Source of the DNA: an uncultured candidate division WWE3 bacterium
Lineage (GTDB): Bacteria; Patescibacteriota; WWE3; UBA101185; UBA10185
DNA: 64,000 nucleotides
Direction: 5' to 3'
NCBI GenBank assembly: GCA_938004185.1
Contig: CALKWN010000065.1
Location: forward strand, 90,371-154,370
A model generated the notes under the pieces. It searched no databases. It was not told where the DNA came from and saw only the letters and a program-made list of their open reading frames with translations. A program made the translations under genes and the position numbers. Within the stretch, counting starts at the first letter, position 1; each line of letters opens with the position of its first letter. Of the stretch, positions 2,433-47,520 are shown piece by piece.

Positions 2433-2434
2433 TT

Positions 2435-3316: not shown

Positions 3317-3352
3317 ATTTGTAAGGACAATTTGAGGAAAGTCGGGAATTTA

Positions 3353-3382: not shown

Positions 3383-3462
3383 TTAATGGTACATATTATG
3401 CTGCCTATTTATAAAGAAATTTTTGAAAAAATTTTCAATTTAAGGAGGGGGGTGAGAAGCAG

Positions 3463-3882: not shown

Positions 3883-3895
3883 TTTTTTGATTGTT

Positions 3896-3930
3896 AAAGC
3901 CCCGCGCGCTATGGGCGGGGCTTTGGGTTT
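3896..3930 (+). terminator. intrinsic terminator/attenuator after the major pilin gene
   Basis: GC stem GCCCCGC (3899-3905) pairs with GCGGGGC (3915-3921). It is followed by TTTGGGTTT. Confidence 0.5.
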
Positions 3931-3938
3931 ACGAGCAA

Positions 3939-4950: not shown

Positions 4951-4971
4951 TTGTTGTGCTACTATTTATGT

Positions 4972-6574: not shown

Positions 6575-6575
6575 A

Positions 6576-7415: not shown

Positions 7416-7465
7416 TTTGTATAAACAGTCTTGTCTATGATGTTAAAGGATAGTAAAATCTTTAT

Positions 7466-21170: not shown

Positions 21171-22217
21171 TTGGTTAGGGATATGAAAAACGATTTAAAC
21201 TCAATTAAACAACAGGCGCAGGAAGAATTGGCGTCTTCCTCTACCTCGCAGGATGCGTCGGAATGGTACTCAAAGTATCTGGGCAAAAAGGGAATTTTAA
21301 GAAATCTAACTTCCGACGTGAAAGGTCTTTCAGAAGAAGAAAAGCGGACTTTAGGCCGTGGTGTCAATGAACTCAAACTGTTTCTTCAAGAAATTTACTC
21401 AAACAGGCAAGAAACCCCCTCAGTACAAGAAAAAGACGAGAAATTAGCGGATTTTTACAAAACTCTGCCGGGCAAAAAACCCGACATCGGGCATCTGCAT
21501 TTAATCACCCAGGCCATACGTGAGATAAATGCCGTTTTTGCAAAATTGGGTTTTGTGCGTGTGCGTTACCCCGAAGTCGAGTGGGACTACTACGCTTTTG
21601 AGGCATTAAACATGCCCGCCACCCACCCCGCCCGTGACGAGTGGGAAACTTTCTTTGTCGACCTTCCAGAAGACAAAAAGATGGGAAAAGTTGTTATTAC
21701 TCCCCATACATCGAGCGGCCAGGTTCGCGAAATGCTCAAAGGCGACCTACCAATTAGAATGATAAACATTTCAAGATGCGGACGCAGACAAATCGACATA
21801 AACCACGTGCCGACCTTTTACCAGTTCGAAGGCCTTTTAATAGACAAAAACATTAGCATCACCCATCTAAAGGGCGTTCTCGAATATTTCATTCATAATT
21901 TTTTTGGTAAGGACACCAAGTTCCGTCTGCGTCCCTATGACTTTAGGTTTACAGAGCCCAGCTTTGAGGTAGACGTAACCTGCAGTATCTGTGGAGGGAA
22001 AGGCTGCCGTTTCTGCAAAGAAGGATGGGTTGAGCTTGGCGGCGCCGGAATGGTTCACCCGAACGTACTAAAAGCAGGAGGTATCGATCCTGAAGAATAT
22101 TCTGGATTCGCTTTTGGCTGGGGAGTTGAAAGAGTTTTGATGATGAGATCAGGATTAAAAATCGACGACATCCGCCACCTGTTGGAAAATAACTTAAAAT
22201 TTTTGGAGCAATTTTAA
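21171..22217 (+). CDS. pheS: phenylalanine--tRNA ligase alpha subunit
   Basis: FEALNMPATHPARDEWETFF and class II aaRS motifs. Confidence 0.9.
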   Translation: MVRDMKNDLNSIKQQAQEELASSSTSQDASEWYSKYLGKKGILRNLTSDVKGLSEEEKRTLGRGVNELKLFLQEIYSNRQETPSVQEKDEKLADFYKTLPGKKPDIGHLHLITQAIREINAVFAKLGFVRVRYPEVEWDYYAFEALNMPATHPARDEWETFFVDLPEDKKMGKVVITPHTSSGQVREMLKGDLPIRMINISRCGRRQIDINHVPTFYQFEGLLIDKNISITHLKGVLEYFIHNFFGKDTKFRLRPYDFRFTEPSFEVDVTCSICGGKGCRFCKEGWVELGGAGMVHPNVLKAGGIDPEEYSGFAFGWGVERVLMMRSGLKIDDIRHLLENNLKFLEQF

Positions 22218-22218
22218 A

Positions 22219-24087
22219 ATGAACGTACTAATACCCCACTCATGGATAAAAGACTTCGTAAAAACAAATGCCGACGTAAAAGAAATTGCGCGAGTTTTGT
22301 CGGCTCATTCGTTTAGTGTTGAGAAAATAATTGACGAAGACGTTTTTGAAATCGAAGTTACTCCCAACCGCGGAGACGCTTTGTCTGTGGCGGGAATCGC
22401 GAGGGAACTGATGGCGGTACTTCCTGCAAACGGGTATTCTGTAGAGTGGGTTAAAAAAGAATTCCCACCTGCTGTATTTTCAGGTAAAGACAGTTTAAAA
22501 GTAAAAATTACCGACAGCACTTTAGTTCCGCGTTTCAGCGCTGTGGTTATAGATAATATAAAGGTAAAGGAATCCCCAGACTACATTAAAAATAGATTAA
22601 ATAAAGTAGGAATAAGGCCAATCAACAACGTCGTGGATGTTACTAATTACTATATGATTGAGCTCGGTCAGCCGATGCACGCCTTTGATTACGACAAAAT
22701 TTCAAAACACGAAATGATAGTGCGCGAAAGCAAAAAAGGCGAAGTTATCACCACTTTGGATGGGGTAAAAAGAACTTTGCCCGAAGGCGTGATAGTTATT
22801 GAAGACGGCGACGGAAGGTTAATAGACCTTTGCGGAATAATGGGTGCTGAAAACAGCGAGGTCGATGAGAATACAGAAAAAGTTTTGCTGTTTGTTCAGG
22901 TTTACGATCCGGTCAAAATTAGAAAAGCCTCGATGAGCCTGGGTCACAGAACCGAAGCTGCACTAAGATTTGAAAAAGGCGTGGACTTCGAGGGCGTTGT
23001 TCCTTCCCTCGTGACTGCTGCGAGAATGTTGGCGGAACTTGGGGGCGGCGAGGTGTCATCAGAGCTTATAGATATTAAAGGCGTCGAATACAAAGAGAAA
23101 AAAATAAAAGTTGATTACGAGAAAATCGACAGGATCGCGGGAATAGACATCGGTAAAGATTTTGTTGACGCGACTTTAGAGTCTTTGGGATTTGAGATTA
23201 AGGGAGGCGAAGCCCTCGTTCCGTCATGGAGATACGACGATATTGAAATTTCAGAAGATCTTGCCGAGGAAGTTGTGAGGATTTACGGATACGAAAAACT
23301 TGAAGGCGTTCTTCCGGGCGGTGCACTTCCCTACTCTGCCGGACGAGACACATTTGTTTTGGAAGACAAGGCAAAAGATTTTTTGAAACACATGGGATTT
23401 TTTGAATGTTATAACTATTCTGCAGTTTCAAAAGAACTCGCGGGGGAAAATGGGGATGCGATAAAGATTAAAAATCCATTAAATGAGGACTTCGAGTATT
23501 TGAGAACAAGCCTGACGCCAAAGTTGTTGGAAGTTTTAAATAAGAACCGTGGATATTCGGATAAAATCAAGGTTTTCGAGCTGGCTCCGGTTTTTCTGCC
23601 TTCAAAAGAAGATTTACCCGAACAGCCGTTACACCTTGGAATAGCGGCTAAAGGCCATAACTACCTCGAATTTAAAGGTTTCGTTGAGGCCTTGCTAGAT
23701 GAACTGAAGATTAAAAAAGAGATTTCTCACAAGATTAGAGAACACGTGAGCGGAATATTTTCCTGCGAGATGTGTTTTGATTGTTTGATGTCGTCTGCGG
23801 TTACACCACTCACCTACTCTACTCTAACCGGCTTTAACTCGATAAAGGAAGATATAACAATTATTGTAAAGGGCGGTTTTAGCTACGGTGACGTAGTCGA
23901 AGAAATAAAAGGAGCCGACGCAAGAGTAAACAAAGTATTGTTTAAGGATATATACGGAGACGCTTTGACTTTATCTATAGATTTTTTGGACAGGCATAAA
24001 CAAATCACCTCGGAAGAAACGAAAAATATCCGTGAGGATATTTTGAAGGGACTCGAGAGGAAGTTTGGAATAAAGCTGAAGGTTTAG
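22219..24087 (+). CDS. pheT: phenylalanine--tRNA ligase beta subunit (short form lacking the N-terminal tRNA-binding OB domain)
   Basis: Immediately follows pheS. B3/4 and B5-like regions. 622 aa against a typical ~800. Confidence 0.8.
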   Translation: MNVLIPHSWIKDFVKTNADVKEIARVLSAHSFSVEKIIDEDVFEIEVTPNRGDALSVAGIARELMAVLPANGYSVEWVKKEFPPAVFSGKDSLKVKITDSTLVPRFSAVVIDNIKVKESPDYIKNRLNKVGIRPINNVVDVTNYYMIELGQPMHAFDYDKISKHEMIVRESKKGEVITTLDGVKRTLPEGVIVIEDGDGRLIDLCGIMGAENSEVDENTEKVLLFVQVYDPVKIRKASMSLGHRTEAALRFEKGVDFEGVVPSLVTAARMLAELGGGEVSSELIDIKGVEYKEKKIKVDYEKIDRIAGIDIGKDFVDATLESLGFEIKGGEALVPSWRYDDIEISEDLAEEVVRIYGYEKLEGVLPGGALPYSAGRDTFVLEDKAKDFLKHMGFFECYNYSAVSKELAGENGDAIKIKNPLNEDFEYLRTSLTPKLLEVLNKNRGYSDKIKVFELAPVFLPSKEDLPEQPLHLGIAAKGHNYLEFKGFVEALLDELKIKKEISHKIREHVSGIFSCEMCFDCLMSSAVTPLTYSTLTGFNSIKEDITIIVKGGFSYGDVVEEIKGADARVNKVLFKDIYGDALTLSIDFLDRHKQITSEETKNIREDILKGLERKFGIKLKV

Positions 24088-24192
24088 GGTTTTTTTATTT
24101 ATATCGGTTGAAGGTTAGATGCCGATTTAATCCAGATTTTATTTTTACTTAATGCTTAGGTAGTATTACGGAAAAAGTGCGGATAGGTGTCT

Positions 24193-27100
24193 TTAATCCC
24201 CGAACCTTATTGCCCCACCCTCGTTGTACAAAACTCTTATCAGATGATCGGTTAAAGGTGCGTTATGTATGGTAACTTCATCAATCTGGCCGTCAAAATA
24301 TCCTGAACCTGCAGAATCTCGGCCGATGTTTAGTGCGGTAGAACTTAGAACAGTAACGGAATCTGTTTCCTCTTGGGTGTCTTCTAAAGTTCCATTTACG
24401 TAAATTTTAATATTTGCTCCGTCGTACGTGCACATTATGTGTGTCCAACTGCTTGCAGTCAGAGAACTTGTAGCTACAGCTGGGGTTTGATAAGTGCCGC
24501 TGGAATATATCTCACATTGCGGATTACCCGACGCATTTGTTGTAAGCTTAAATTCACCAGGTTTATGAATCAGCGTATCAGAGGCTGGAGAGGAATCAGG
24601 ATTAAACCAAGCACCGTAAGAAATGTTGCTGTAGCTAATCCCGTTTGCATGGAACAAGGGTGAGGTGGAACCTACTAGATAGTCATCAACACCGTCAAAA
24701 TCCAGACTTCCGTTAAACTTACCTTCTTTACCTCCGTACCACATCTCCCCAGACGATCCCTCGCAAGTGCCGACAGTAGTATTTCCCGATGACTGTGGGT
24801 AGATTGTTAAATCAATACCAACGGAGGTATCGTCAGAAGATCTACCAGAGTTGTGGGCCGTGCTTCCCGAACACTCATTAAATTTATAGTAGTACTTAGG
24901 TGCAATTCTGTTATATTCCCAAGCTATTTGTGCTTGAGTTCTGGTGTAGTCATAAAGTTTTACATTATCCATGGTTCCGTAAAAATAGCTGGATGCTGCG
25001 GGGGCGTTGGAACCAAAATATAACGGCATATTAGAATTTAGAATTACTCCAGAAGCACCGGTTGCGGGTGCGTGGGACAGTTCCTTATTTAAGTAAGCGT
25101 ATAGAACTGTACCATCTCTAACTAGAGCAAAGTGATACCACTTGTCTGTTGTAATTGAGAGCGTGTTGATAGTTGTATTTGACGACGCCCTCGAAGACGC
25201 GACCCACCTACATTCTATTATGTCGGTGGTAGTTATATAGCATAGATAGCTACTATAAGGATCTGTATTGTCAGATTTTACAAAGAGGTAGTATGTATTA
25301 CCCGCATCCGAAGGTAGTTGGTCAAGTTTAAACCACATCGATACGGTAATACCGTTTACAGGTGTAAGAAGATCGTTATCAGGAACGTTGGTATAGTCGT
25401 TTGTTCCGTCAAAAGCTAACCCACCACCGTTTTTCCCTGTATCCCATGTAGGATCGTTTGTGGCTGGAGAAGATGTATCTCCTAACATACCGAACAAATT
25501 GTTAGCACCGCTATCGTAAAACAATTGCCCTGACATCTCGTCCATTCTCCACTCTGCTACCGGTGGGCTACACGCAGCCGTATCCCCTGGAACACAATAC
25601 ATTCGGTCATACGAATTGCTGGGTGTTACCCCATCACTTTCAGTAGACAAAGCACCCCACTGCGATGTCTTGCCCTGATTCAACAAAACATTCGCCTCGC
25701 CCTGATTAATTTCATAATTAAAAATCGTAACCTCATCAATTGAACCCACAAACTTTCCTGTGTAGTCGTCTCCCCGGCCCCCGATAACAAGGGTGTTGTC
25801 TCCGTCGATACTGCCTGTTGCCGTAAGGTTTGTATTTGAATCGTTAAGTACGCCATCAATGTAAAGGTCAATTTGACTTGTCCCTATTTTTACAGCTGTT
25901 ACACTATGCCACTGGCCGTCGTACACGTCATCATCGCTGGAAACTGTGTCATCAGGTGACCATGTCGAGTCATCGTCAATTCCAAAGATTATGTTTCCTC
26001 CGGAGTTGAAATACAGCGCATACCCTGCGGTTGAGTTTCCACCACGACCAAGTACATACTCGGTACTTGAGGGGTTTGAGGAGGAGTCGGACTTAAACCA
26101 CATGTTTATGGCAAAGCTTTCGTCGTCAAAGACAAAGGCATTGTCATCTACATATGCGTAGTTTGTTCCCCCGTCATAAAATGCTTTATTAAATTTACCT
26201 GAAGTGGTAAATGCTGTGGCAGATGGAGGTGAGGCAACAAGTGTCAGGTTTCGGGAGTTTCCTGTTCGGTCGTAAATTGTTGTGCCTCCGTTTTCGTCGA
26301 ATCTATAGTGAGCGATTGGTGCACCAAGGGTTGAATCGGGTGCTGGGATTTGAGCGTCAAGATCTTTTGTCACTTGTTTTACATCAGGTGCGTATGAATA
26401 TATTTTGAAGTCGTCGAGGCGTCCCTCAAAGTTTTCGCCGGATCCGCCTTCCATTTGAGAGCCGTATGTTTTGCCGAGGAGAAGTGGTTTGTCTTCGGAG
26501 GCGAGTGAAAATGGAGTTGCGTTAGTAGTTGTATTTTCAAGGACACCGTTGACGTAGATTTTTAAATCGGAGCCGTCGAATGTTCCGGAGAGGTGATACC
26601 AGGTGTCTGCGGTCCAGGAGGAGGTGGTTGACGCAACACTAACATCAGATGTGTTCCCATATTTTGCAATTTGATTTACAGTCGTCCCCCCTGCTGTGGT
26701 AAAGGCTCCCCCCACATACAAATACCCGTTATACACACTCAAGGTACGGACCTGATTATTTGTCCCCACAGTAGCCCCTCCTATGGGGAGGCAGGTATCA
26801 GTTGAATCATCGTACTTTGCAATATTATTTACAGTTGTTCCTTCTGATGTGGTACCAGAAAAACCCACATACAAATACCCGTTATATGCTGCGAAAGCAT
26901 AGGTATCGGAGATATCTCCATCGTTTCCACCACATATGGCACTAATTGTATCCGTACTATCATTATATCTTGCAACTCTATTTCCATGGCTTGTAAAGCT
27001 TCCACCTAAATACAAATATCCGTTGTATTCTCCTAATGCGTAAATATAGCCACTTGTACCGGTTGCTCCCGCTATAGCACTGAAGGTATTAGTACTACCA

Positions 27101-30100
27101 TCATATTTTGCAATGTTTCCTGTAGCAGTGCCACCCGCAGAGGAAAAATCACCGGCCAAATACAAGTACCCTTTATATACTGTAAGAGCATAAACTTCTG
27201 CTGAAGCCGGAAAACCTATAGATACCCCCACAGTAGCTCCACCAATAGCAGAGAAGGTATCAGTACCATCATCATATTTTGCTATTCTGTTTACAGTCGT
27301 CCCCCCTGCTGTGGTAAAGTCTCCTCCCAAATACAAATACCCGTTATACACACTCAAGGTACGGACCTGACCATTTGTCCCCACAGTAGCACCGCCTATT
27401 GCACTAAATGTATCTGTTTCATCATCATATTTTGCAATGTAATTTACAGTCGTCCCCCCGGCTGTGGTAAAACTTCCTCCCACATACAAGTGCCCATTAT
27501 ATGCTGCGAGGGACCAGACAATACTACTTGTCCCCACAGTAGCTCCACCAATAGCAGAGAAGGTATCAGTACTATCATCATATTTTGCAATGTTATTTAC
27601 AGTCGTCCCCCCTGCTGTGGTAAATTCTCCCCCCACATACAAATACCCGTTATATACTGCTAGGGCGTGGACCCAATAACTTGTCCCCACCGTCCCCCCA
27701 CCCAACGCACTAAAAGCCTTCGCCGTCGCATCATTCACCACCCACTTCGCTTTCCCATCCGACTTATCCAAAAAGAACTGATAGTCACCCTTATCAACAA
27801 TGCCTTGGTTATAGTCCGCACCGGTAGAAAACTCCTCACCCATCTGCACCCACCCCGAAACAGCAACTCCCGCCTCGGGCGAAATGTACGCACTGCTGTC
27901 TGTGGTAACAAAATCATCAACTCCGTCAAAAGTCGCGCCCGTCCCATACCTTCCCGGAGCCCACGAGGCGCCGTTTGTTAAGGTTCCGGTGAGCTGGTTT
28001 CCGCTCGAGTCGTGTGCGGAAGTTTCTGTGTTTTCTTCAAATTTATAGTAAAGGTCGGGTGGAGGTGAGTGCTGATACAAACTATATATTTCGGAATCGG
28101 AGAGCGCCGTATTGTATATGCGCAAGTCGTCGATAAGTCCGTCGAAGGACTCGTCGGATCCGCCGGCCATTTGCGACCCGTAGGTCTTGCCGATGAGGAG
28201 GTCTCTGTTGTTGGTCGCGAGGGTAAAGGGCGTGGAGTTGGTGGTTGTGCTTTCCAGCACGCCGTTGACGTAGATTTTTAGGTTGGTTCCGTCGAATGTT
28301 GAGGCGAGGTGGTACCAGGTGTCGGGTGTCCAGGTTGAGGTTGAGGTGGAGACGGCGGCGGGGGTGTCGGAAGATGAGCCGTATTTCGCAATTCCATTTA
28401 CAGTCGTCCCCCCGGCTGTTGTCACATGATATCCCCCCAAATACAAATACTCGTCATATACCGCCAAGACTCTAACATGGGGGTCAGTGTTGCCTACCCC
28501 CACAGTAGCCCCACCGATGGCAGAGAAGGTATCAGTACTATCATCATATTTTGCAATTTTATTTACAGTTGTCCCCCCCGCTGCCGAAAACTCCCCCCCG
28601 AGATACAAATATCCTTCATACACTGCTAAGGAGTGGACGGAATAAGTTGCCCCCACAGTAGCTCCACCAATAGCAGAAAAGGTATCAGTACTATCATCAT
28701 ATTTTGCAATATTATTTACAGTCGTCCCTCCTGCCGCTGTCATATCATGTCCCCCTACATACAGATATCCGTTATATACCGCTAGGGATGAGCCCGCGAC
28801 GTATGATCCGCCACTAATTCCTACAGTGGCACCCCCTATTGCAGAAAAGGTATTAGTACTATCATCATATTTTGCAATGTAATTTACAGTCGTCCCCCCC
28901 GCTGTGGCAGTAAAATTTCCCCCTAAATACAAATGTCCGTTATATACTGCTAAGACTCTGACTGTAGGAGGGTCAGCTCCCGGCTCGAAGAGGCCGGGAC
29001 TAGCCCCACCAATGGCAGAGAAGGTATCAGTAACATCATCATATTTTGCAATTCCATTTACAGTCGTCCCCCCTGCTGTAAAAATATCTCCCCCAGCATA
29101 CAAATGTCCGTTATACACTGCCAAGGCATAGACAGAACCACTTGTCCCCACAGTAGCTCCACCAATGGCAGAGAAGGTATCAGTAACATCATCATATTTT
29201 GCAATGTAATTTACAGTCGTCCCCCCTGCTGCGGTAAATTGTCCCCCCACATATAAATACCCGTTATACACTGCCAAGGCATAGACAGAAACACTTGTCC
29301 CCACAGTAGCTCCACCAATGGCAGAGAAGGTATCAGTAACATCATCATATTTTGCAATGTAATTTACAGTCGTCCCCCCTGCTGTGGCAAAGCTCCCTCC
29401 CAAATATAAATACCCTTTATACACTGCCAAGGCATAGACAGAATCACTTGTCCCCACAGTAGCTCCACCTATAGCACTAAACACCTTCGCCGTCGCATCA
29501 TTAACCACCCACTTCGCCTCCCCACCAGACTTATCAAGATAGAACTGGTAGTCCCCTTTATCAACAATTCCCTGGTTGTAGTCTGCGCCTGTTGAAAACT
29601 CTTCATCCATTTGTACCCATCCTGAAACCGTAACCTCATTAGATACAGATAAAGATGGTGAGCTTCCCGCGTTAAGGTAGTCTGTCGTTCCGTCATATGA
29701 AGTAGCTCCCCCGTAAACTCCCCTATCCCACGCCACATCCTCATTTAGAGTTGCATCGTTATCAAACCCTGAAGAATCTGTTGCAGTAGCTCCCGTTGCG
29801 TCATCCATTTTCCAATAGGCAACAAGCCCGTCTGTAGTGTAGCTTGTATGATCATTTCCAAATGCAGCCGACGTCCCGTGCAAGGTGGGAGAGTAGCGGA
29901 TAATATCTGTTTGAAGCTCTGTGAAAGATCTTTCCTCTGCGTAAATTTTGAATTCATCAATATATCCGTCAAAGCGGTTTGAGGCTGAAGTTCCCCCGAT
30001 AGTTAGTGTATTTGTTTCTGTCGCCGGAGCTCCGTCTCCGTTTGTACTTGTTCCCATAAGAACCCCGTCAACATAAATTGAAATCTCATCATCCGAATCA

Positions 30101-32910
30101 TCTTTGTATGTTAATGCTATGTGGTGCCACTGCCCTAATGTTATTGCATCATCAACCGTTATGGTCGCATCCGTCGTTCCAAGATCTATTGAGGCAACAA
30201 TATCGGCGACCGAAGAATCACTTCCCGCGCCGAGCCTTAAATAGCTTGAAGTCCCTTTTTGAAAAATTGCACCCGCACTTCCCTCCCCTGCAGACAAAGG
30301 ACGTATCCAAGCCTGAACGGTAAACTCATCATTTAACTTCTCTCCGAAATTTACGGATTCGTGGTCATCAATTCGTAACATGTCGTTTACCCCGTCAAAG
30401 AGAATACACCCGTTTGATACACAGTAGTCATTTGATGCTACCCATGTGGGATATGTTAGTGTAGGTAAAGTTTCAAGAGCTATTTTTCCAAGTATTGCAG
30501 ATGAATATATGTCGCTATTATTAGTGGTTGCCACAACATCTACCGTTTGTGCCGAGCTTGGAGCTGAAATTGCCGTAGTTATTGCGTAATTTGAAGGCGT
30601 AAGAGTTGAATTTGAAATATCACTTGGTGAGCTATTCGGGTCAGTCTGTAGTTTTATTGAAGATGAGCTTGACGCAGCTCCCGCCGCCTCGTGATAGTAT
30701 GTAGTTGAGGCGTCGTTTCCTATTTCATCAGGGTCAAAGTATGTGTCAAAGTTTTGAGGTGCTGTCCCCGATGACAAAAGTGTGTTGGCCACAAGGTATC
30801 TTGACTCTGTTTTTGTTATTACCGTTCCCGTTTGGGTAGCAACTACCTTGGCGTTATATATATCATAAGTATTTGCAGCGTTACTTACCGAACCCACTAT
30901 TCTGTAGTGTCTTCCGTCTGTAGGTGTAAATGAGACTCTTGTTCTTGTTGGTGTGGTTACACTTGAAACAGCGTTGACTATTGTTTGTTTGTCTGTCCAT
31001 GAACCGAACGAGCCGTTGTCTTCCTGAAGTTTTATTGTAACGGTGTATGTGGTAACAATGGAGTCATATGTTATTTTTATTTGTCCTGGTCGGCCCGGAC
31101 CACCGCTTCTGTTTCTTGATGCTCCTGAACCATCTTTATCTCCTGCACCACCGCCACCACCGCCCGGACCTGTTGCGGGTGCAGAACCATTTGTACCGGT
31201 CGAACCTCCATTACCTCCCGGCCCTCCGTCAGTCACCGCTGTAGCTCCTGTTTGTCCTGTAGCATCGTTTCCGTCAGACGAAGGACCTGCAGATCCGCCA
31301 CCGCCTCCTCCGGTGGAAGCATTATTATCCGCCCCATCACCACCGTTATATTTCGTAGTACCGTTACTTGCCGCAGCGGATCCTCCCGCACCTGGAGAAC
31401 CGCCTTCGGATCCGCCCCCGCCCCCTCCCTTGACATTTACACCCGAAGTATCGAAGGATGAGTCGCCTCCCACACCGCCATTACCGGTGCCTGCTGAGCC
31501 ACCCGCACCTACTGTGTAAGAAAAATTACCGGGACATGACAACGATACAGTGCTGGCTGCATAAGCGCCACCACCACCACCCGCTCCCGCTACCGAGTTA
31601 TCTGTAGTATCCCCACCTCCTGCACCGCCACCTCCCCACGCCTCAACATAAATGTTTGATGCTGTTGAAGGACAGCTCCAACTGTATGTTCCCGCGGTTG
31701 TAAAAGTTTCGGTAGTTGAAGAAGCATCCCCCAGAATCTTCTTCCAACTAACCTCTGCCGAAAAAGTTGTTGTTCCGTCCCAGTTGTCGTCATCGTACTT
31801 CCAATATTTAGGGTAATTTAAGGCTGCTGCTGTAGTATTAGACTTTCCGACCTCGTAATTTCCAAGCTCGATTTGAGCTTCAGTTGCAGTCATTGGTTCC
31901 TCGCCAACATTCTGTATTACTATTATTCTCGCGGACTTAACCTCAGGCGAAGTTCCCCCCGACAAGTTTATATTGTATTCCGTCTCCCCCGCAGGGGGTG
32001 TAAATGCAGTACCTCTTTTTCTGGTAAAGTCAGTTTCAGTAACGGTTACGGTCGTATCCTGCGTTGCAGTACCCGACCTCTCAAGTGCCACCGTCAAAGT
32101 GCCGGATGAAACTTTTGCCACCACCTCAAAATAGTAAGTCTTTGTTCCGCTGTAATTATCCGTGTCGAGCAGCACCAAAGAAGGATCGTCCCCCGACGCC
32201 GTTGCTATATGGTCAATAATATTTATCTCCCGCCGTATTACCTGATCCTGTGTCATTTCTCCCCCAAACGCTGCGTCGTTTAAATTAGATGTTGAATCGT
32301 GGGCAACTAATCCGTACGCCTCATCCATCTTCAAATACACCGAAGGCGAAGGACCTATTTCAATACTTCCAAGGGTTGGTGTACCGCCCGAAGGCGTTAA
32401 GCCGGAAACGGAAGACACCGTACCATCAGTAGTCGAGTGCGCCGTCGGGTTTGAATAATACATAAAAATATTATTTCCCCCGCTTGTTACGCTTGTCAGT
32501 ACAACATCAAATACCGTAGAAGAAGTATTACATCCCGAAACCACGGTGTATTTTAAAAGATCTCCGCCTATTGTGGTAAAAATCACATCATCACAGTCTT
32601 CCTGCATCTTTCCGTCTGCAATAAGTGAGGCGGTATCAACCGTAATACTTACTCTGCTGTCTGTTGAAACATCCGCATTATGTGTAAAAGATACTTTTTG
32701 CCTTTCGTTATACGCGTCATCGTACCAATCGGCTTTTACCCTTGTTGCTTCAAGTATTGAATATATTGTTACGGGAATTGCGACAGCCAAAAAAGCCAGC
32801 ATTATTTTTTTTCTGGATTTCCTGTCGCGTAAAGCAAGAACAAGCTTGTTTTTTGTCTTGTAGATTACCTGAATATTGTCTTTTAGGCGCAGTTTTTCGA
32901 GGGCATTCAT
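24193..32910 (-). CDS. giant membrane-anchored surface protein (2905 aa) with a Gly-rich region, multiple LamG-like domains and two propeller-like repeat arrays
   Basis: Single uninterrupted ORF. N-terminal TM (MLAFLAVAIPVTIYSIL). At least six LamG motifs (WYHLASTFDG..LKIYVNGVL...FDGLIDDLRIYNTALS and variants). ~15 tandem ~50-aa units (TDTFSAIGGATVGTS.SVYALAVYNGYLYVGG.FTTAGGTTVN.IAKYDD). Confidence 0.85.
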   Translation of the reverse strand: MNALEKLRLKDNIQVIYKTKNKLVLALRDRKSRKKIMLAFLAVAIPVTIYSILEATRVKADWYDDAYNERQKVSFTHNADVSTDSRVSITVDTASLIADGKMQEDCDDVIFTTIGGDLLKYTVVSGCNTSSTVFDVVLTSVTSGGNNIFMYYSNPTAHSTTDGTVSSVSGLTPSGGTPTLGSIEIGPSPSVYLKMDEAYGLVAHDSTSNLNDAAFGGEMTQDQVIRREINIIDHIATASGDDPSLVLLDTDNYSGTKTYYFEVVAKVSSGTLTVALERSGTATQDTTVTVTETDFTRKRGTAFTPPAGETEYNINLSGGTSPEVKSARIIVIQNVGEEPMTATEAQIELGNYEVGKSNTTAAALNYPKYWKYDDDNWDGTTTFSAEVSWKKILGDASSTTETFTTAGTYSWSCPSTASNIYVEAWGGGGAGGGDTTDNSVAGAGGGGGAYAASTVSLSCPGNFSYTVGAGGSAGTGNGGVGGDSSFDTSGVNVKGGGGGGSEGGSPGAGGSAAASNGTTKYNGGDGADNNASTGGGGGGSAGPSSDGNDATGQTGATAVTDGGPGGNGGSTGTNGSAPATGPGGGGGGAGDKDGSGASRNRSGGPGRPGQIKITYDSIVTTYTVTIKLQEDNGSFGSWTDKQTIVNAVSSVTTPTRTRVSFTPTDGRHYRIVGSVSNAANTYDIYNAKVVATQTGTVITKTESRYLVANTLLSSGTAPQNFDTYFDPDEIGNDASTTYYHEAAGAASSSSSIKLQTDPNSSPSDISNSTLTPSNYAITTAISAPSSAQTVDVVATTNNSDIYSSAILGKIALETLPTLTYPTWVASNDYCVSNGCILFDGVNDMLRIDDHESVNFGEKLNDEFTVQAWIRPLSAGEGSAGAIFQKGTSSYLRLGAGSDSSVADIVASIDLGTTDATITVDDAITLGQWHHIALTYKDDSDDEISIYVDGVLMGTSTNGDGAPATETNTLTIGGTSASNRFDGYIDEFKIYAEERSFTELQTDIIRYSPTLHGTSAAFGNDHTSYTTDGLVAYWKMDDATGATATDSSGFDNDATLNEDVAWDRGVYGGATSYDGTTDYLNAGSSPSLSVSNEVTVSGWVQMDEEFSTGADYNQGIVDKGDYQFYLDKSGGEAKWVVNDATAKVFSAIGGATVGTSDSVYALAVYKGYLYLGGSFATAGGTTVNYIAKYDDVTDTFSAIGGATVGTSVSVYALAVYNGYLYVGGQFTAAGGTTVNYIAKYDDVTDTFSAIGGATVGTSGSVYALAVYNGHLYAGGDIFTAGGTTVNGIAKYDDVTDTFSAIGGASPGLFEPGADPPTVRVLAVYNGHLYLGGNFTATAGGTTVNYIAKYDDSTNTFSAIGGATVGISGGSYVAGSSLAVYNGYLYVGGHDMTAAGGTTVNNIAKYDDSTDTFSAIGGATVGATYSVHSLAVYEGYLYLGGEFSAAGGTTVNKIAKYDDSTDTFSAIGGATVGVGNTDPHVRVLAVYDEYLYLGGYHVTTAGGTTVNGIAKYGSSSDTPAAVSTSTSTWTPDTWYHLASTFDGTNLKIYVNGVLESTTTNSTPFTLATNNRDLLIGKTYGSQMAGGSDESFDGLIDDLRIYNTALSDSEIYSLYQHSPPPDLYYKFEENTETSAHDSSGNQLTGTLTNGASWAPGRYGTGATFDGVDDFVTTDSSAYISPEAGVAVSGWVQMGEEFSTGADYNQGIVDKGDYQFFLDKSDGKAKWVVNDATAKAFSALGGGTVGTSYWVHALAVYNGYLYVGGEFTTAGGTTVNNIAKYDDSTDTFSAIGGATVGTSSIVWSLAAYNGHLYVGGSFTTAGGTTVNYIAKYDDETDTFSAIGGATVGTNGQVRTLSVYNGYLYLGGDFTTAGGTTVNRIAKYDDGTDTFSAIGGATVGVSIGFPASAEVYALTVYKGYLYLAGDFSSAGGTATGNIAKYDGSTNTFSAIAGATGTSGYIYALGEYNGYLYLGGSFTSHGNRVARYNDSTDTISAICGGNDGDISDTYAFAAYNGYLYVGFSGTTSEGTTVNNIAKYDDSTDTCLPIGGATVGTNNQVRTLSVYNGYLYVGGAFTTAGGTTVNQIAKYGNTSDVSVASTTSSWTADTWYHLSGTFDGSDLKIYVNGVLENTTTNATPFSLASEDKPLLLGKTYGSQMEGGSGENFEGRLDDFKIYSYAPDVKQVTKDLDAQIPAPDSTLGAPIAHYRFDENGGTTIYDRTGNSRNLTLVASPPSATAFTTSGKFNKAFYDGGTNYAYVDDNAFVFDDESFAINMWFKSDSSSNPSSTEYVLGRGGNSTAGYALYFNSGGNIIFGIDDDSTWSPDDTVSSDDDVYDGQWHSVTAVKIGTSQIDLYIDGVLNDSNTNLTATGSIDGDNTLVIGGRGDDYTGKFVGSIDEVTIFNYEINQGEANVLLNQGKTSQWGALSTESDGVTPSNSYDRMYCVPGDTAACSPPVAEWRMDEMSGQLFYDSGANNLFGMLGDTSSPATNDPTWDTGKNGGGLAFDGTNDYTNVPDNDLLTPVNGITVSMWFKLDQLPSDAGNTYYLFVKSDNTDPYSSYLCYITTTDIIECRWVASSRASSNTTINTLSITTDKWYHFALVRDGTVLYAYLNKELSHAPATGASGVILNSNMPLYFGSNAPAASSYFYGTMDNVKLYDYTRTQAQIAWEYNRIAPKYYYKFNECSGSTAHNSGRSSDDTSVGIDLTIYPQSSGNTTVGTCEGSSGEMWYGGKEGKFNGSLDFDGVDDYLVGSTSPLFHANGISYSNISYGAWFNPDSSPASDTLIHKPGEFKLTTNASGNPQCEIYSSGTYQTPAVATSSLTASSWTHIMCTYDGANIKIYVNGTLEDTQEETDSVTVLSSTALNIGRDSAGSGYFDGQIDEVTIHNAPLTDHLIRVLYNEGGAIRFGD
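26630..27720 (-). repeat. intragenic tandem repeat array 2 (8 units of ~150 bp)
   Basis: Same repeat family as array 1. Separated from it by a LamG-like segment. Confidence 0.8.
28375..29500 (-). repeat. intragenic tandem repeat array 1 (7 units of ~150 bp)
   Basis: Recurring near-identical DNA strings (atcatcatattttgcaat...tttacagtcgtcccccctgctg) spaced ~150-160 bp apart. Confidence 0.8.
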
Positions 32911-32976
32911 TCAGACTAATTTTAACTTTTTTGGTGCGTTTTGTGTAGGGGGTTTAAGGCGTTTATACACACAAAA

Positions 32977-34797
32977 TTACTTGGCGTAACCTTCAGCTTG
33001 AAGATTAAAAGCGTTTGCATAATTTCCGTTTAATTTCATGAGCTCTTCGTGGGTGCCTGTTTCAATAATTTTACCGTTATCCATTACAACTATGCGGTCG
33101 GCGTTTCTTACCGTAGAAAATCTGTGCGAAATAATAATTACCGTCTTCTTTTTGAAGAATTCGTAAATCTTATTGAAAATATTGTATTCCGAAACAGGGT
33201 CGATTGCAGCGGTAGGTTCGTCGAAAATGACAATGGGCGAGTTGCGATAGAAGAATCTGGCCAAAGCAAGTTTTTGCCACTGCCCTGTGCTCGGCCTTAT
33301 TCCGCCTTTGTACTTAACACTTAATATCTGGTCGTATTTGTTGTCGTACTTTTCAATAAACTCGTGAGCGTCGGCGGCCTTTGCGGCAAGCATAATTTTA
33401 TCTGTGTCGGGTTCGATGTCTGCGTCACCCAGCATAATATTTTCTTTCACGGTTAAATGAGGGTACGAATTGAAATCCTGAAACAAAACGCCCATATTTT
33501 TGTAAAGCGTAGCAATTTCAAGTTCGTTAATGTTTTTTCCGTCTACAGTTATTTCGCCCGAACTGACTTTGTAAAATCTTGACAGCAACTTTATAAGTGT
33601 GGTTTTTCCCGCGCCGTTTTCTCCTACAATCGCGATTTTTTCGCCGGGTTTAATTTCCAGGGTAAGATCTTCGATTACCGGCTTTGTTGTGTTGGGGTAG
33701 GCAAAAGTAATTTTGTTAAAGACAATTGAAGGTCCTTCTAAATATTTGGGGAGTTGTACAGTGCCGTCTTCAAACGCGGGCTCGGTCTGAAATAGAAGAT
33801 AGGTGTCCTTTAACTGTAAAGAAAACTCGAACAAATCATTAAAGCCCTGAATAACATTCGACATCGAAGTCTGAAGAATTCCTATCGTCCTCATCCAGAA
33901 AACAGTATCTCCGACGGTAATAGCTTTTTCTATAAGGCGCTGAAAAATTTTTACATACCCGAAAAGAATTACAATGTCGTTTAAAAATCCGAAAGAATGA
34001 CCGCCGATTCTACCCTTTTTAAAAATTTTTAGCCTGTTTTCTACTAAGTAACCCTGGAGTTCGGTATATTTTTTATCAAGGTAAGAAAAAGCGTTATTTA
34101 TTCCGATTTCGTGAAGCCTGACCGAGCTTGTTAAGTCGCCCGCGATGTTACCTGCTACCCTTCCCCGCTCTGTGTTGTTGTAATTAAATTGGTAGAGCTT
34201 TCTTCTAATAGATTTATCAAATAGTAAGTAAGGGGTTGAAGCGACCAGAAGTAGGGGAGCAAACCAGGGCATAAATTTTATTGTAATTATTAAAGCCGTC
34301 GCCAGTTTTACAATATCTGCAATTAAAGACACCGACTTTTCCATATACGGCATTATGTTGTAAAGGTATTCATCTGCGCGCGTAATTTTGTTGTTGACTT
34401 CAGGAATTTCGAGAGTTTGTATTCCGAGAGATTTTAATTTAAAGTACTCGGATTTTCTTATATTAAATCTACTTACCACTCTAATATGAGTAGACGAATA
34501 ACCTCTTAGAAAACTTATAATCGTCTCAAAAAAATTATATCCGAGAAGAATTGCAAGATATGGATATAGGTAAGAAAGATTTGCACCGGGCATTTGTGCA
34601 ACATTTATGAGTTCGTCAATTGCTTTGGCAAAAATGTAAGTGTATATAAGGTCCTGCCACTTATTAACTATCGTTGTTGCAATGTAAATTGAAAAATGTA
34701 CCGGGTCGATGCGAAAAATCATTGCCAACGACCATTTACTGATTTTGACAAACTCGTTTAAATCGATTTTGTCTGCAGGTGTAACGGCAGTTTGCAT
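32977..34797 (-). CDS. ABC transporter, fused permease/ATP-binding exporter (MsbA-like type)
   Basis: N-terminal 6-TM domain. GENGAGKTT Walker A, LSTGQWQKLALAR signature, IVIFDEPTAAID Walker B. Confidence 0.85.
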   Translation of the reverse strand: MQTAVTPADKIDLNEFVKISKWSLAMIFRIDPVHFSIYIATTIVNKWQDLIYTYIFAKAIDELINVAQMPGANLSYLYPYLAILLGYNFFETIISFLRGYSSTHIRVVSRFNIRKSEYFKLKSLGIQTLEIPEVNNKITRADEYLYNIMPYMEKSVSLIADIVKLATALIITIKFMPWFAPLLLVASTPYLLFDKSIRRKLYQFNYNNTERGRVAGNIAGDLTSSVRLHEIGINNAFSYLDKKYTELQGYLVENRLKIFKKGRIGGHSFGFLNDIVILFGYVKIFQRLIEKAITVGDTVFWMRTIGILQTSMSNVIQGFNDLFEFSLQLKDTYLLFQTEPAFEDGTVQLPKYLEGPSIVFNKITFAYPNTTKPVIEDLTLEIKPGEKIAIVGENGAGKTTLIKLLSRFYKVSSGEITVDGKNINELEIATLYKNMGVLFQDFNSYPHLTVKENIMLGDADIEPDTDKIMLAAKAADAHEFIEKYDNKYDQILSVKYKGGIRPSTGQWQKLALARFFYRNSPIVIFDEPTAAIDPVSEYNIFNKIYEFFKKKTVIIISHRFSTVRNADRIVVMDNGKIIETGTHEELMKLNGNYANAFNLQAEGYAK

Positions 34798-34807
34798 AAT
34801 AGAGGTC

Positions 34808-35167
34808 TTAGTTTGTTATAAATTTCTTTACGGCTTCAACGACTTTTTCGAAGTCTTTAGGTTCGTTGATAGCCATTTCGGAAAGCGTTTTTCTGTTGAG
34901 TGTTATGTTCGCTTTTTTAAGACCTGCAATAAATCTCGAATATTTTACATTGTATTGGGATAGAGCTCCGTTTAATCGGGCAATCCACAATCTTCTCATA
35001 TCTCTTTTTTTCTGTTTTCTTCCCTCAAAAGCATGCTCACCCGCTCTTATTACGGCTTCCTGTGCTCTTTTGAAAAGTCTGCTTCTGGTTCCTCTATAAC
35101 CTTTTGCCAGTTTTAATACTTTTTTATGTTTTCTGTGGCCTCTAGGCCCTCCTTTTACTCTAGACAT
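34808..35167 (-). CDS. rplT: 50S ribosomal protein L20
   Basis: MSRVKGGPRGHRKHKKVLKLAKGYRG... Confidence 0.9.
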   Translation of the reverse strand: MSRVKGGPRGHRKHKKVLKLAKGYRGTRSRLFKRAQEAVIRAGEHAFEGRKQKKRDMRRLWIARLNGALSQYNVKYSRFIAGLKKANITLNRKTLSEMAINEPKDFEKVVEAVKKFITN

Positions 35168-35382
35168 TACTTTATTCCTTTATCCTTTTTTACCAAAAGG
35201 CTCTTAAAAATTTTTATGTGTCCTCTGTTTGTCTGTTCCTCAAGACCTTTTTTTCTGCATTTTCTCCCAGCGCTCCATTTTCTTTTTAGGTGCCCTGAGT
35301 TAACACTTTTTCTCATAAGTTTTCCTGATTTAGTTATTTTTATTCTTTTTAATAATGTTTTTTTCGATTTCATTTTAGGCAT
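35167..35382 (-). CDS. rpmI: 50S ribosomal protein L35
   Basis: MPKMKSKKTLLKRIKITKSGKLMRK. Start placed at an internal Met of the 35167..35403 ORF. Confidence 0.8.
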   Translation of the reverse strand: MPKMKSKKTLLKRIKITKSGKLMRKSVNSGHLKRKWSAGRKCRKKGLEEQTNRGHIKIFKSLLVKKDKGIK

Positions 35383-35430
35383 TTTTAAAACCCCTTCTCT
35401 CATTTAGAAAGCGTGTCTTTCTAAACTTAC

Positions 35431-35973
35431 TCATTTAGGAAGAAATATTTCCGATACCAAAGGACCCATGCGTTTTGCAGGCCCTTCAGGTTTCGCGTCT
35501 TCCGCCAATCCCTGCTCAATTTTTTTGAGCTTCTCAAAAGCCATTTCAGGAAACATTGCTTGTCTTCCCTTCATTCTTACGGTGACCTTTACTCTATTTC
35601 CGTCATCCAAAAATTCTTTTGCTCTCTCTATGTACCTGTTTATATCCCCTTCTCCGGTTGTAGGAGAAAGTCTTAACTCTTTAAGCTCGCTTTTTTTGCT
35701 TTTAACTTTCGCGGCGCTTAATTTTTTTCTCTCTTCGTACAAAAATTTAGAGTAGTCAACAAACTTTGCCACGGGAATTTTAGCATTAGGCGCTACCAAG
35801 AGAAGATCCAATTCTCTTTCTTTGGCAGCTCTTACGGCCTTAGGTGTATCCATAACACCAAGGTTCTTGCCTTCTTCGTCTATAACCACTACCTGAAAGA
35901 CTCTTATTCTTTCGTTTAAGATGTGCTGGTTATTTATAGACGAATTCCTCCCATAACTGCAATAAATTACCAC
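35431..35973 (-). CDS. infC: translation initiation factor IF-3
   Basis: INERIRVFQVVVIDEEGKNLGVMDTPKAVRAAKERELDLLLVAPNAKIPVAKFVDYSKF. The real start is probably a non-ATG codon downstream of the track start. Confidence 0.8.
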   Translation of the reverse strand: MVIYCSYGRNSSINNQHILNERIRVFQVVVIDEEGKNLGVMDTPKAVRAAKERELDLLLVAPNAKIPVAKFVDYSKFLYEERKKLSAAKVKSKKSELKELRLSPTTGEGDINRYIERAKEFLDDGNRVKVTVRMKGRQAMFPEMAFEKLKKIEQGLAEDAKPEGPAKRMGPLVSEIFLPK

Positions 35974-37766
35974 AAAGACAGGTCTCTGGTCAAATATATT
36001 TCCCTGATTTTACTTATAATTTCGGCTGTCTTTACCGGACCCAGGTTTTCGCCCGTTCTTAAGCGGACGCTGGCGGTTTCGCTTTCTATCTCTTTATCCC
36101 CCACCACAAGCATATAAGGCACTTTTTGCATTTGAGCGTCGCGAATTCTGGCGTTCATGGGTTCGTTTCGGTCGTCCGAATGTACGCGCAATCCTTCTTC
36201 CTTCAACATTTGAGCAAGGTCCGCACAGTATTTTGCATGCTTTTCGCCGATCGGAATGATTACTATTTGTAGAGGTGACAGCCACACAGGCATATTTCCG
36301 GCAAAATGCTCCAGCAAAAACCCTACAAATCTTTCGTCGGAGCCCAATGGTGCGCGATGCTGAATTATTACCGGCTTTTCCTGTCCGTCCTTATCAGTAT
36401 ATGTAAGGCCGAACCTTCCCGGCATGTAAAGATCGATTTGGTTGGTCGAAATGGCATATTCATTGCCAATAGCAGACTTAATTTTGAGATCCATTTTCGG
36501 TCCGTAATGAGCGGCGCCACCTATTTCCGTCTCATATTCGACTCTTGCGGCTTTCATACCCTCTATCGAGAGTTTTTCAGCCTTTTTCCACATTTCTTCG
36601 TCGCCATGGTATTTATCTTTTTTCTCGGGATCGGGCAAGCCCAAAACTATGTGATAATCTTTTAATCCCAACTTGTCGTAGTAATATCGATGCATATCCA
36701 TTATTTCAACAAAAACGTCAATGGCCTGCTCTTCTGAGCAATAAATATGAGCGTCATTCTGAGTAAATACCCTCGGTCGTAAAATTCCGTTCAGGGCGCC
36801 TCTATTTTCATATCTTGCCACCGTGCCATATTCCGCCAGGCGGTAAGGTAAATCACGATAGCTTCTCGGTTTTGACCTAAAAACTAAATGATGGAAAGGA
36901 CAGTTCATGGGTTTTAAGAAATACTCTTCTTCACCCTCGCCCGGTATCTGCACTTTATACATCTCTTCTTCAAAGTAAGGAACATGTCCTGAAATTTCAA
37001 AAAGTGTTCTTTTAGTCATGGGAGGCGTCATTACGCGGTGGTATCCCCACTCTTCTTCGGTCTCTTTGCCCCATTTTTCAAGTTCTTCGCGTATTATTGC
37101 CCCGTTGGGGAGCCAAATCGGAAGACCGGGACCGACTTCGTCGCTAAGCATGAATATTTCAAGTTCTCTGCCGAGCTTTCTGTGGTCGCGCCTTTTCTGT
37201 TCTTCGAGCAATTCCAGGTATTTTTCGAGGTTTTGCTTGTTGTCAAAGGCTGTAGCGTATATTCGGGTAAGCATTTTGTTCTTTTCGTCACCTCTCCAAT
37301 AAGCACCGGCAATAGATAGCAGTTTAAACGCTTTTATTTCTTTGGTATTTTCTACATGAGGGCCGGCGCATAAATCAATATCATAGTATTTATCACCCTC
37401 TTCGCCGAATGTATAAAAAGTGAGTTTTTCACCGTCTTTTGAATGCTCTTCTATTAGCTCAAGTTTAAACGGGTTATTTTTAAACAGTTTCTTGGCTTCC
37501 GCGGCGGTTAAAGTGTGTTTTTTTACGGGCATTGCCGCGTCAATAATTTCCTTCATTACGTGCTCGATTCGGCCGAAATCTTCTTCACTGATTTTGCCGT
37601 CGTAATCGAAGTCGCAGTAGAAACCGTCCTCTATAGGAGGTCCCATGACTTTTTTTGCACCCGGAAATACCGATTCTACCGCGGTATGAAGTACGTGTTC
37701 AGCGGTATGTCTTAAAGGCATTAACGGATCGTTTTTTAATTTATCTATTACCTTTTCTTTAGCCAT
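35967..37766 (-). CDS. thrS: threonine--tRNA ligase
   Basis: Class II core plus anticodon-binding domain. Conserved thrS-infC-rpmI-rplT order. 599 aa. Confidence 0.9.
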   Translation of the reverse strand: MAKEKVIDKLKNDPLMPLRHTAEHVLHTAVESVFPGAKKVMGPPIEDGFYCDFDYDGKISEEDFGRIEHVMKEIIDAAMPVKKHTLTAAEAKKLFKNNPFKLELIEEHSKDGEKLTFYTFGEEGDKYYDIDLCAGPHVENTKEIKAFKLLSIAGAYWRGDEKNKMLTRIYATAFDNKQNLEKYLELLEEQKRRDHRKLGRELEIFMLSDEVGPGLPIWLPNGAIIREELEKWGKETEEEWGYHRVMTPPMTKRTLFEISGHVPYFEEEMYKVQIPGEGEEEYFLKPMNCPFHHLVFRSKPRSYRDLPYRLAEYGTVARYENRGALNGILRPRVFTQNDAHIYCSEEQAIDVFVEIMDMHRYYYDKLGLKDYHIVLGLPDPEKKDKYHGDEEMWKKAEKLSIEGMKAARVEYETEIGGAAHYGPKMDLKIKSAIGNEYAISTNQIDLYMPGRFGLTYTDKDGQEKPVIIQHRAPLGSDERFVGFLLEHFAGNMPVWLSPLQIVIIPIGEKHAKYCADLAQMLKEEGLRVHSDDRNEPMNARIRDAQMQKVPYMLVVGDKEIESETASVRLRTGENLGPVKTAEIISKIREIYLTRDLSLW

Positions 37767-47219: not shown

Positions 47220-47304
47220 TGGTGGGCGAGAGAGGACTCGAACCTCCAATCCTTTCGGAACACGGTTCTAAGCCGTGCGCGTATGCCAGTTCCGCCACTC
47301 GCCC
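47220..47304 (-). tRNA. tRNA-Leu (anticodon TAG), type II with long variable arm, CCA encoded
   Basis: Manual fold: GGGCGAG acceptor, CACGG-CTTAGAA-CCGTG anticodon arm, long variable arm, GGAGG-TTCGAGT-CCTCT T-arm. Confidence 0.85.
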
Positions 47305-47379
47305 ATGTAACTCTATTTTCTTATTTGTTTTTAAATCTGCTTTTTTCGTCCGCACGTCTTACGCCCTGTCGGTCCAAAA

Positions 47380-47413
47380 CCGTGCGCGTATGCCAGTTCC
47401 GCCACTCGCCCAT
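47380..47413 (-). repeat. 34-nt duplicate of the tRNA-Leu(TAG) 5-prime half (positions 1-31 plus 3 nt upstream)
   Basis: ccgtgcgcgtatgccagttccgccactcgcccatg matches exactly, located 76 bp on the 5-prime side of the intact gene. Confidence 0.75.
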
Positions 47414-47520
47414 GCAACTACCCCCTCACTCAAGCGCTAACATATTATACCAACAGAACACTCAACTTCTAGCAAAAAGAAAGGGCGGTTATTAAACCGC
47501 CCTTCCCCACTAATATTCAA

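Follow-up and report, generated by a model that had tools for sequence, protein, structure and literature searches.

Seven-bladed propellers predicted inside LamG domains of a giant, putatively surface-exposed protein from a candidate division WWE3 bacterium

The 64,000-nucleotide stretch analyzed here (hereafter, the window; contig CALKWN010000065.1 of an uncultured candidate division WWE3 bacterium) carries a giant gene on the minus strand (24193..32910). It consists of one uninterrupted open reading frame (ORF) of 8.7 kb, as an initial annotation of this DNA had stated, with an ATG start, no internal stop, and a product of 2905 aa. That annotation had also proposed a propeller-like repeat array lying within a LamG fold and a duplication of the entire unit. 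Both proposals hold. Two LamG domains of the protein each appear to contain a complete seven-bladed beta-propeller, which is indicated by the profile continuity of the two LamG halves and by the occurrence of the same nested unit in unrelated organisms, and the two modules are 62-63% identical. Judged from sequence, the nested unit is real, conserved, and rare. We read the giant gene as encoding an exported, surface-exposed multidomain binding protein whose propellers would serve as multivalent heads in attachment, and we place the probability of this reading at roughly 0.6.

Evidence for the split comes primarily from profile coverage. Domain coordinates were derived from Pfam scans of the whole protein and of sub-segments, using curated gathering cut-offs. 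Laminin_G_3 (PF13385) matched the whole protein in seven stretches with 451.7 bits against a cut-off of 27.6 (E 8.5e-137). The LamG domains total six, four contiguous and two split, in line with the earlier estimate of at least six. In module 1, the LamG N-half (aa 1030-1138; 29497..29823, minus strand, as all features of the gene) was delimited by alignments with LamG homologues and between modules, and ends in a conserved hairpin, ADYNQGIVDKGDYQFYLDKSGGEAKWVVND. The corresponding C-half (aa 1514-1615; 28066..28371) covers Laminin_G_3 profile positions 67-150. In module 2, the N-half (aa 1620-1727; 27730..28053) was placed by module comparison, and the C-half (aa 2088-2186; 26353..26649) covers positions 63-150. 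The repeats of both modules are bounded by an N-piece (…SGWVQM… and the hairpin) and a C-piece (…TWYHL…IYVNGVL…FDGLIDDLRIY), and the junction hairpin follows the consensus …DKGDYQFYLDKsdGkAKWVVND.

The key test was an in silico deletion of the propeller from module 1. The resulting chimera (aa 1030-1140 joined to 1511-1620) gave a single Laminin_G_3 stretch over profile positions 1-150 of 151, with 107.9 bits (E 6.9e-31). By itself, the C-piece reached 87 bits and matched its own part of the profile only, and the N-piece remained below the Laminin_G_3 threshold. Contiguous LamG proteins (P0121 and P0122) aligned with 96% of the chimera at 36-37% identity, and contiguous LamG homologues bridged the insert cleanly in the multiple alignment. 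Because the chimera yields one full-profile match, the C-half yields a partial match and the N-half none at threshold, and contiguous homologues span the junction, the sequence argues that the LamG domain is genuinely split, with the insert following a beta-hairpin at about profile position 63-67. The four contiguous domains score 82-103 bits each. The first (aa 860-998; 29917..30333; 96 bits) precedes the modules, and the remaining three follow them (aa 2246-2405, 25696..26175; aa 2501-2663, 24922..25410; and aa 2758-2890, 24241..24639), the last of which is C-terminal.

Motif positions, blade alignment, and profiles together define the inserts as propellers of the Kelch/Rax2/DUF5122 type, at aa 1139-1513 in module 1 (28372..29496) and aa 1728-2087 in module 2 (26650..27729). 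The initial annotation had counted 7-8 repeats of ~50 aa per module. The repeats are confirmed at 46-58 aa, and their number is exactly 7 in each module. The check that it had suggested, profile searches for LamG and propeller families, likewise agrees: besides Laminin_G_3, the whole-protein scan placed Kelch_6 (PF13964; 65.3 bits against a cut-off of 25.3), Rax2 (PF12768; 55.8 against 28.8), and DUF5122 (PF17164; 47.1 against 27) above threshold. That the repeats are propeller blades is further supported by phmmer matches to the designer Kelch protein SAKe6 (1e-24) and to Keap1 (5e-7), and Foldseek likewise returned Kelch domains. The predicted array is a closed toroidal propeller of four-stranded blades.

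The repeat register is D-A-B-C, with FSAIGG as the first strand. Given this register and general propeller topology, the first strand must close the last blade in a ‘velcro’ arrangement, which would bring the N and C termini of the inserted propeller side by side. Hence, the propeller could fit into a LamG loop and leave the LamG fold unbroken. The blades are near-identical consensus repeats without blade-specific conserved residues. Variation among them is highest in the D-A loop and at the position after GG, in the B-C loop.

Structure prediction was performed twice with AlphaFold. In the first run, the propeller was confident, and the LamG halves mostly remained below a predicted local distance difference test score (pLDDT) of 60, because the alignment was poor there, with LamG rows misplaced by MAFFT among propeller fragments. 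The second run used an alignment of the two modules, an archaeal homologue, and 18 LamG-only rows, without propeller fragments. It gave a mean pLDDT of 78.5 and a predicted template modeling score (pTM) of 0.69. Averaged per 10-residue block, pLDDT ranged from 69 to 91 in the N-half and from 61 to 95 in the C-half, to which DSSP assigned 8 and 5 strands, respectively. All structural matches listed for the model fall on the propeller and none on the LamG halves.

The same combination of nested unit and conserved hairpin at the junction recurs in at least 16 modules of other Patescibacteria, one Woesearchaeota archaeon, and one Phycisphaerales bacterium, where the blades number 7 or 14. A protein search with the whole module, in which the matches listed were no longer than 1024 aa, led mainly to free-standing Rax2/DUF5122-type propellers at 35-46% identity. 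These usually have 7 or 14 blades and often carry sorting domains of the type IX secretion system (T9SS). One 883-aa protein (P0028) displays the same nested layout with 7 blades, and its cluster includes Candidatus Woesearchaeota records. Giant relatives were found by DNA-pattern scans and in a library of representative proteins. Among 185,579 GTDB species representatives, the junction-hairpin pattern scan identified 4 loci only. One lies in a metagenome-assembled genome (MAG) of Patescibacteria AMAZON02 (L003), where a protein of more than 2395 aa contains one nested module with 7 blades and the same order of parts as the giant protein: hydrophobic N-terminus, DUF2341-like region, Gly-rich region, LamG, nested module, and further LamG. 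The others belong to an unclassified bacterium, a Woesearchaeota genome (L005; 7 blades), and a Phycisphaerales MAG in which a LamG domain is split by 14 blades (L006).

The same scan of metagenomes returned 10 loci. A closer orthologue with two seven-blade modules is located on a 532-kb contig (L008). At L012, L013, and L014 (e.g., Ga0209053_1000004, a 973-kb contig), the same junction hairpin (36% identity) is followed by an insert of ~720 aa built from a different propeller-type repeat, …LYAGLGxTAGDxEVWxWNGxxWxKIGGD…; therefore, the same LamG loop hosts more than one repeat family. Orthologous nested modules at L009 (Ga0155733_124) and L010 (Ga0209641_10002051) contain 2 and 3 blades, respectively, too few to close a propeller, and most likely reflect repeat collapse in short-read assemblies. 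A profile of the LamG N-half was additionally searched against 1.84 billion representatives, where the ranking is dominated by multi-LamG proteins and counts do not measure family size. Inspection of the top 150 matches showed LamG-array proteins of 927 to 7282 aa, in many cases accompanied by DUF2341, and the nested unit is present in 5 of them. The largest array seen is a 5314-aa protein (P0282; NCBI, 44.7-kb contig) with four consecutive nested modules, to which the hidden Markov model of the blade assigns 7, 7, 7, and 9 blades. P0347, P0416, and P0426 carry one nested module each, with 7 blades. Copy number therefore ranges from 1 to 4 modules per protein.

In a neighbor-joining (NJ) tree, 16 split LamG units grouped in one clade, separate from 25 contiguous LamG units drawn from these proteins, with 84/100 bootstrap support in a test whose bias is weighed below. 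On these grounds, the nested unit is likely, though not proven, to have arisen once and then spread among bacteria and archaea. Within the giant protein, module 1 shares 62-63% identity with module 2 compared with 59% with the first module of L008, and the NJ pairing receives 33-34% bootstrap. As to whether the modules were duplicated before the divergence from the L008 organism, these values would fit either independent duplication or gene conversion. The literature searched contained no paper on a LamG domain with an inserted propeller, and Pfam models the nested unit only as separate pieces. The nested architecture thus appears undescribed, whereas its component families and the LamG-rich surface proteins in candidate phyla radiation (CPR) organisms and in DPANN archaea were already known. 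The unit is neither a new fold nor a new system.

The remainder of the protein is consistent with export. Its sole hydrophobic segment (aa 34-58; 32737..32811) is preceded by a K/R-rich N-region and may represent either a Sec signal peptide or a signal anchor. The N-terminal transmembrane signal anchor proposed initially therefore stands as a single hydrophobic segment, and anchor and cleaved signal peptide are not distinguishable. Cleavage would be possible after VKA (aa 59-60), and the equivalent segment in L003 ends in ...ANA|GW. A DUF2341-like region follows (aa 105-164; 32419..32598), scoring 22.6-22.9 bits, slightly below the Pfam cut-off of 23.4 (PF10102); the domain is clear in the homologues P0347 and P0426 (60 bits). 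The ~190-aa segment previously described as Gly-rich and of low complexity is indeed Gly-rich, but it is more than low complexity: it is a recognized Pfam domain, Gly_rich_2 (PF21722; aa 404-615; 31066..31701), matched over profile positions 1-225 of 226 with 61.1 bits against a cut-off of 24.3. Two beta-rich stretches flank it (aa 190-400 and 620-850, within ~30361-32343) and showed no similarity to Pfam, to PDB structures, or internally; they are possibly new domains. An arrangement in which Gly_rich_2 would be inserted between two related beta-sandwich halves was considered and found unsupported at the sequence level, where BLASTP of the flanks was empty (E 6.4). After the last LamG domain, no C-terminal sorting signal was detected (no LPXTG, no T9SS domain PF18962, and only three scattered GGxGxD). 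The NCBIfam scan of the giant protein gave zero matches, and the Pfam scan likewise produced no enzyme family above threshold. In composition, the protein is acidic (320 D+E against 145 K+R) and rich in Gly, Thr, and Ser. The G+C content of the repeat region (0.465-0.479, compared with ~0.40 in the flanks) is consistent with a Gly/Ala/Thr-rich product.

These features can be assembled into a proposed mechanism. The single N-terminal hydrophobic segment would mediate export. Beyond it, the protein would form a string of beta-domains, namely the DUF2341-like region, Gly_rich_2, and six LamG jelly rolls arranged as beads on a string. The LamG array may play two parts, that of a stalk or spacer and that of a secondary lectin surface, while the two propellers would constitute multivalent binding heads in which each near-identical blade presents an equivalent site. 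The variable D-A and B-C loops are predicted to lie on one propeller face. The joint targets of the heads could be epitopes repeated on a host cell or another surface, with glycans or glycoproteins as the most likely class. A lectin or adhesin function is accordingly plausible, and the propeller is probably a binding head for attachment; surface exposure, the class of ligand, and the role in attachment are what we infer from the architecture. Propeller lectins such as tachylectin-2, RSL, AAL, and PLL/PHL achieve multivalent glycan binding through near-identical blades with equivalent sites. The comparison of the giant protein with them concerns the proposed mechanism only. A role in binding is also favored by the homologue P0347, which carries a carbohydrate-binding module (CBM_4_9). 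Moreover, LamG-rich surface proteins of DPANN archaea and CPR bacteria have been widely proposed to function in host recognition, and also in fixation of the cell to its host (PMC10266531).

Several points weigh against this assignment. In the giant protein, searches found neither a catalytic nor a known adhesin-specific motif, and no wall or membrane anchor besides the N-terminal segment, which might itself be cleaved. The likeness of the propellers to glycan sensors is a generic fold similarity at 13-16% identity. Host association of WWE3 is assumed from general CPR biology. The monophyly test is biased, as its units were found through the N-half signature, and support from the C-half by itself amounts to 13/100. 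Finally, the blade count of propeller 1 differs between assemblies, as detailed below.

An alternative that we consider unlikely is a mainly structural role as an S-layer-like component or envelope scaffold, in which LamG domains and propellers would promote self-assembly or bind the wall of the producing cell rather than act as a specific adhesin. The size, acidity, and Thr/Ser/Gly-rich composition of this exported protein without an enzymatic domain would suit such a role. So would its housekeeping neighborhood, with thrS-infC-rpmI-rplT and an ABC transporter before it and a convergent pheST, and the presence in the window of genes resembling a protein mannosyltransferase and a sugar-nucleotide epimerase/dehydratase. 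However, the nested module is rare, with 4 loci among the GTDB species representatives, and a copy number of 1-4 per protein is more typical of fast-evolving accessory interaction proteins than of core envelope parts. The carbohydrate-binding module of a homologue also speaks against a purely structural function.

The blade count of propeller 1 requires separate consideration. Blades 1-3 (29024..29496) form a near-identical tandem DNA repeat at which assemblies disagree. An exact repeat of 93 nt recurs in blades 1 and 2, its copies (~29292-29384 and ~29139-29231) offset by 153 nt, and the DNA identity of blades 2 and 3 reaches 90%, compared with 59-84% for the other blade pairs compared. The 2905-aa protein of the window, with 7 blades in propeller 1, is on record in identical form on a 721,246-bp contig. 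A 20.6-kb ENA contig encodes a 2854-aa version that differs only by the absence of aa 1177-1227, exactly one blade, leaving 6. The 842-kb NCBI contig OZ337356.1 is otherwise 100% identical and has a 100-N gap in place of exactly blade 3, and a Logan contig ends within propeller 2. Outside this spot of ~150 nt, assemblies are 99.9-100% identical across the whole gene, and all variants remain in frame. Since assemblies differ only there, the gene and its architecture are reproducible, and the blade number of propeller 1 is the one doubtful detail. The seven-blade version of the window is probably right, because module 2 and almost all homologous modules have 7 blades.

The difference in blade number could instead be genuine, with blades 1-3 acting as a contingency locus at which slippage or recombination varies the binding head within the population. 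An in-frame difference of exactly one blade between samples at a perfect 93-nt repeat would be expected under this scenario, and the elevated identity of blades 2 and 3 suggests recent duplication or gene conversion. Yet a six-blade form of an otherwise seven-bladed family would require refolding, the third assembly is simply gapped at this position, and collapse of short reads offers a simpler account of the same data. We therefore regard real variation as rather improbable. A broader version, no more probable in our estimate, would treat the nested unit as an undescribed composite adhesion module of single origin that is exchanged among CPR, DPANN, and Planctomycetota, with the propeller head as a contingency element that gains and loses near-identical blades in frame through recombination at perfect repeats (7 versus 6 blades between samples). 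If true, ultrasmall symbionts could adjust how they bind hosts with no need for a dedicated diversification system. For metagenomics, the case carries a warning, as blade counts in such genes are unreliable when taken from short-read assemblies.

A catalytic role for the propellers, for example in the cleavage of host polysaccharide by a lyase or hydrolase activity, with the LamG domains as carbohydrate-binding accessories, is quite improbable. It gains some credit from the LamG halves, which resemble the lectin domains of sialidases, trans-sialidases, and an arabinanase. On the other hand, the whole protein contains zero Asp-boxes (S-x-D-x-G-x-T/S-W) and no enzyme family at threshold, and the nearest sequence relatives of the inserts are non-enzymatic Kelch-type propellers. 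Near-identical blades lacking blade-specific conserved residues are also expected of binding propellers rather than of active sites.

Least probable is that the architecture, or part of it, is an artefact of collapsed or misjoined tandem repeats and that no intact 2905-aa ORF exists: although the 93-nt repeat, the shorter ENA version, the gap in OZ337356.1, the Logan contig end, and the 2-3 blades of L009 and L010 would fit this explanation, the near-perfect agreement of independent assemblies outside one spot, the 60-82% identity of most other internal DNA repeats of the gene, the canonical 7 blades given by the window as the longest version, their recurrence in module 2, P0028, L003, both L008 modules, three of four P0282 modules, P0347, P0416, and P0426, and the independent occurrence of the nested unit across many assemblies and lineages argue against it. 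The possibility of an assembly artefact had been raised in the initial annotation; it does not apply to the ORF, and it retains relevance for the blade count of propeller 1.

The binding protein proposed here can be compared with several known systems. Like the LamG-rich surface proteins of ultrasmall organisms, it is encoded in a small genome, carries an export segment, and contains several LamG domains. It differs in that two of its LamG domains are interrupted by complete propellers, a feature seen in only 5 of the 150 top LamG arrays. Free-standing Rax2/DUF5122/Kelch propellers belong to the same blade family and are normally built as units of 7 or 14 blades. They are terminal or arranged in tandem, many with a T9SS domain, whereas the propellers of the giant protein are embedded in LamG without a T9SS C-terminal domain. 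Sialidases and trans-sialidases, such as Vibrio cholerae neuraminidase and Trypanosoma cruzi trans-sialidase, also combine a concanavalin A-like lectin domain with a propeller in one chain, and Pfam models of the Sialidase N-terminal domain (PF02973) and of the TS_C lectin domain match the LamG C-halves. In those enzymes, the lectin domain flanks the catalytic six-bladed propeller or is inserted into it, which represents the reverse nesting. Their propeller is catalytic, whereas the giant protein displays seven Kelch-like blades without a detected catalytic signature; the family was rejected, as the Asp-box is absent and only lectin-domain models match. In integrin alpha, an I domain is inserted into a seven-bladed propeller, the opposite nesting, and TSPEAR combines LamG and an EAR-propeller in tandem. 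For neither was homology beyond the fold found.

Other candidate systems were also rejected. T9SS-secreted, sortase-anchored, and repeats-in-toxin/type I secretion system (T1SS) adhesins were set aside in view of the missing C-terminal signals and of a LamG domain at the end of the protein. An ABC exporter gene (32977-34797) is adjacent, and no other T1SS parts were seen among the neighbors. A diversity-generating retroelement target was dismissed, since the window outside the gene contains no matching repeat. SPEARE-type proteins of Nanohaloarchaeota comprise 8,000-9,400 aa with Ig-like arrays, a C-terminal transmembrane region, and a VirB4/TraG-like ATPase (PMC10266531). The Pfam scan recovered none of these domains, and the sole hydrophobic segment of the giant protein is N-terminal. 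Finally, a prophage origin was rejected: PHROGs matches were restricted to LamG- or propeller-type virion families or to families of unknown function, and the neighbors are housekeeping genes.

The module of ~590 residues is expressible on its own and conserved across small-genome bacteria and archaea, which makes it a testable candidate and a good experimental handle on the surface biology of CPR and DPANN organisms. For protein evolution, it provides a clean example of a whole repeat propeller accommodated in a jelly-roll loop, with 1-4 modules per protein and inserts of 7 or 14 blades.

The taxonomic placement of the window agrees with its encoded threonyl-tRNA synthetase, whose closest named relatives belong to candidate division WWE3/Katanobacteria, where identity is 84% across half of the protein and 57-60% when the full length is compared, and to the ‘Patescibacteria group’ (65-67%). 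Together with the contig sizes of 721-842 kb, these relatives identify a CPR bacterium with a small genome. On the same strand as the giant gene lie thrS, infC, rpmI, rplT, and the ABC exporter gene, which ends 66 nt before it. A gene for penicillin-binding protein PBP1a together with pheS and pheT occupies the plus strand, with pheST convergent with the giant gene. Across 21171-37766, the classical thrS-infC-rpmI-rplT/pheS-pheT neighborhood is broken by the exporter and the giant gene, which stand between rplT and pheST.

A type IV pilus cluster is located elsewhere in the window (258-9996, plus strand). Pili have likewise been proposed to mediate host contact in CPR cells. The cluster comprises five pilin-like genes with N-terminal methylation motifs (3891-6574), followed by genes for PilM (7466-8497), a PilN-like protein (8498-9073), and a PilO-like protein (9070-9996). 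Two ORFs of 724 and 293 aa without a Pfam match (258-3316) precede the pilus genes. In a member of the Minisyncoccales, a 310-aa protein (P0130) joins the N-terminal methylation motif of type IV pilins to a LamG domain akin to the split ones described here, which suggests that LamG heads may also be displayed on CPR pili.

Two further genes concern sugar metabolism and glycosylation: a sugar-nucleotide epimerase/dehydratase-like gene (49081-50031, minus strand) and a glycosyltransferase of the PMT_2 family, similar to protein O-mannosyltransferases (52197-53735, plus strand). Their products could act in the glycosylation of surface proteins rich in Ser and Thr, the giant protein among them. 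Lastly, a 50-nt direct repeat with 92% identity occurs at 47263-47312 and 47370-47419. The first copy overlaps the 5' half of a tRNA-Leu(tag) gene (47220-47304, minus strand). The second, at which neither ARAGORN nor Rfam called a tRNA, may be a tRNA fragment or remnant.

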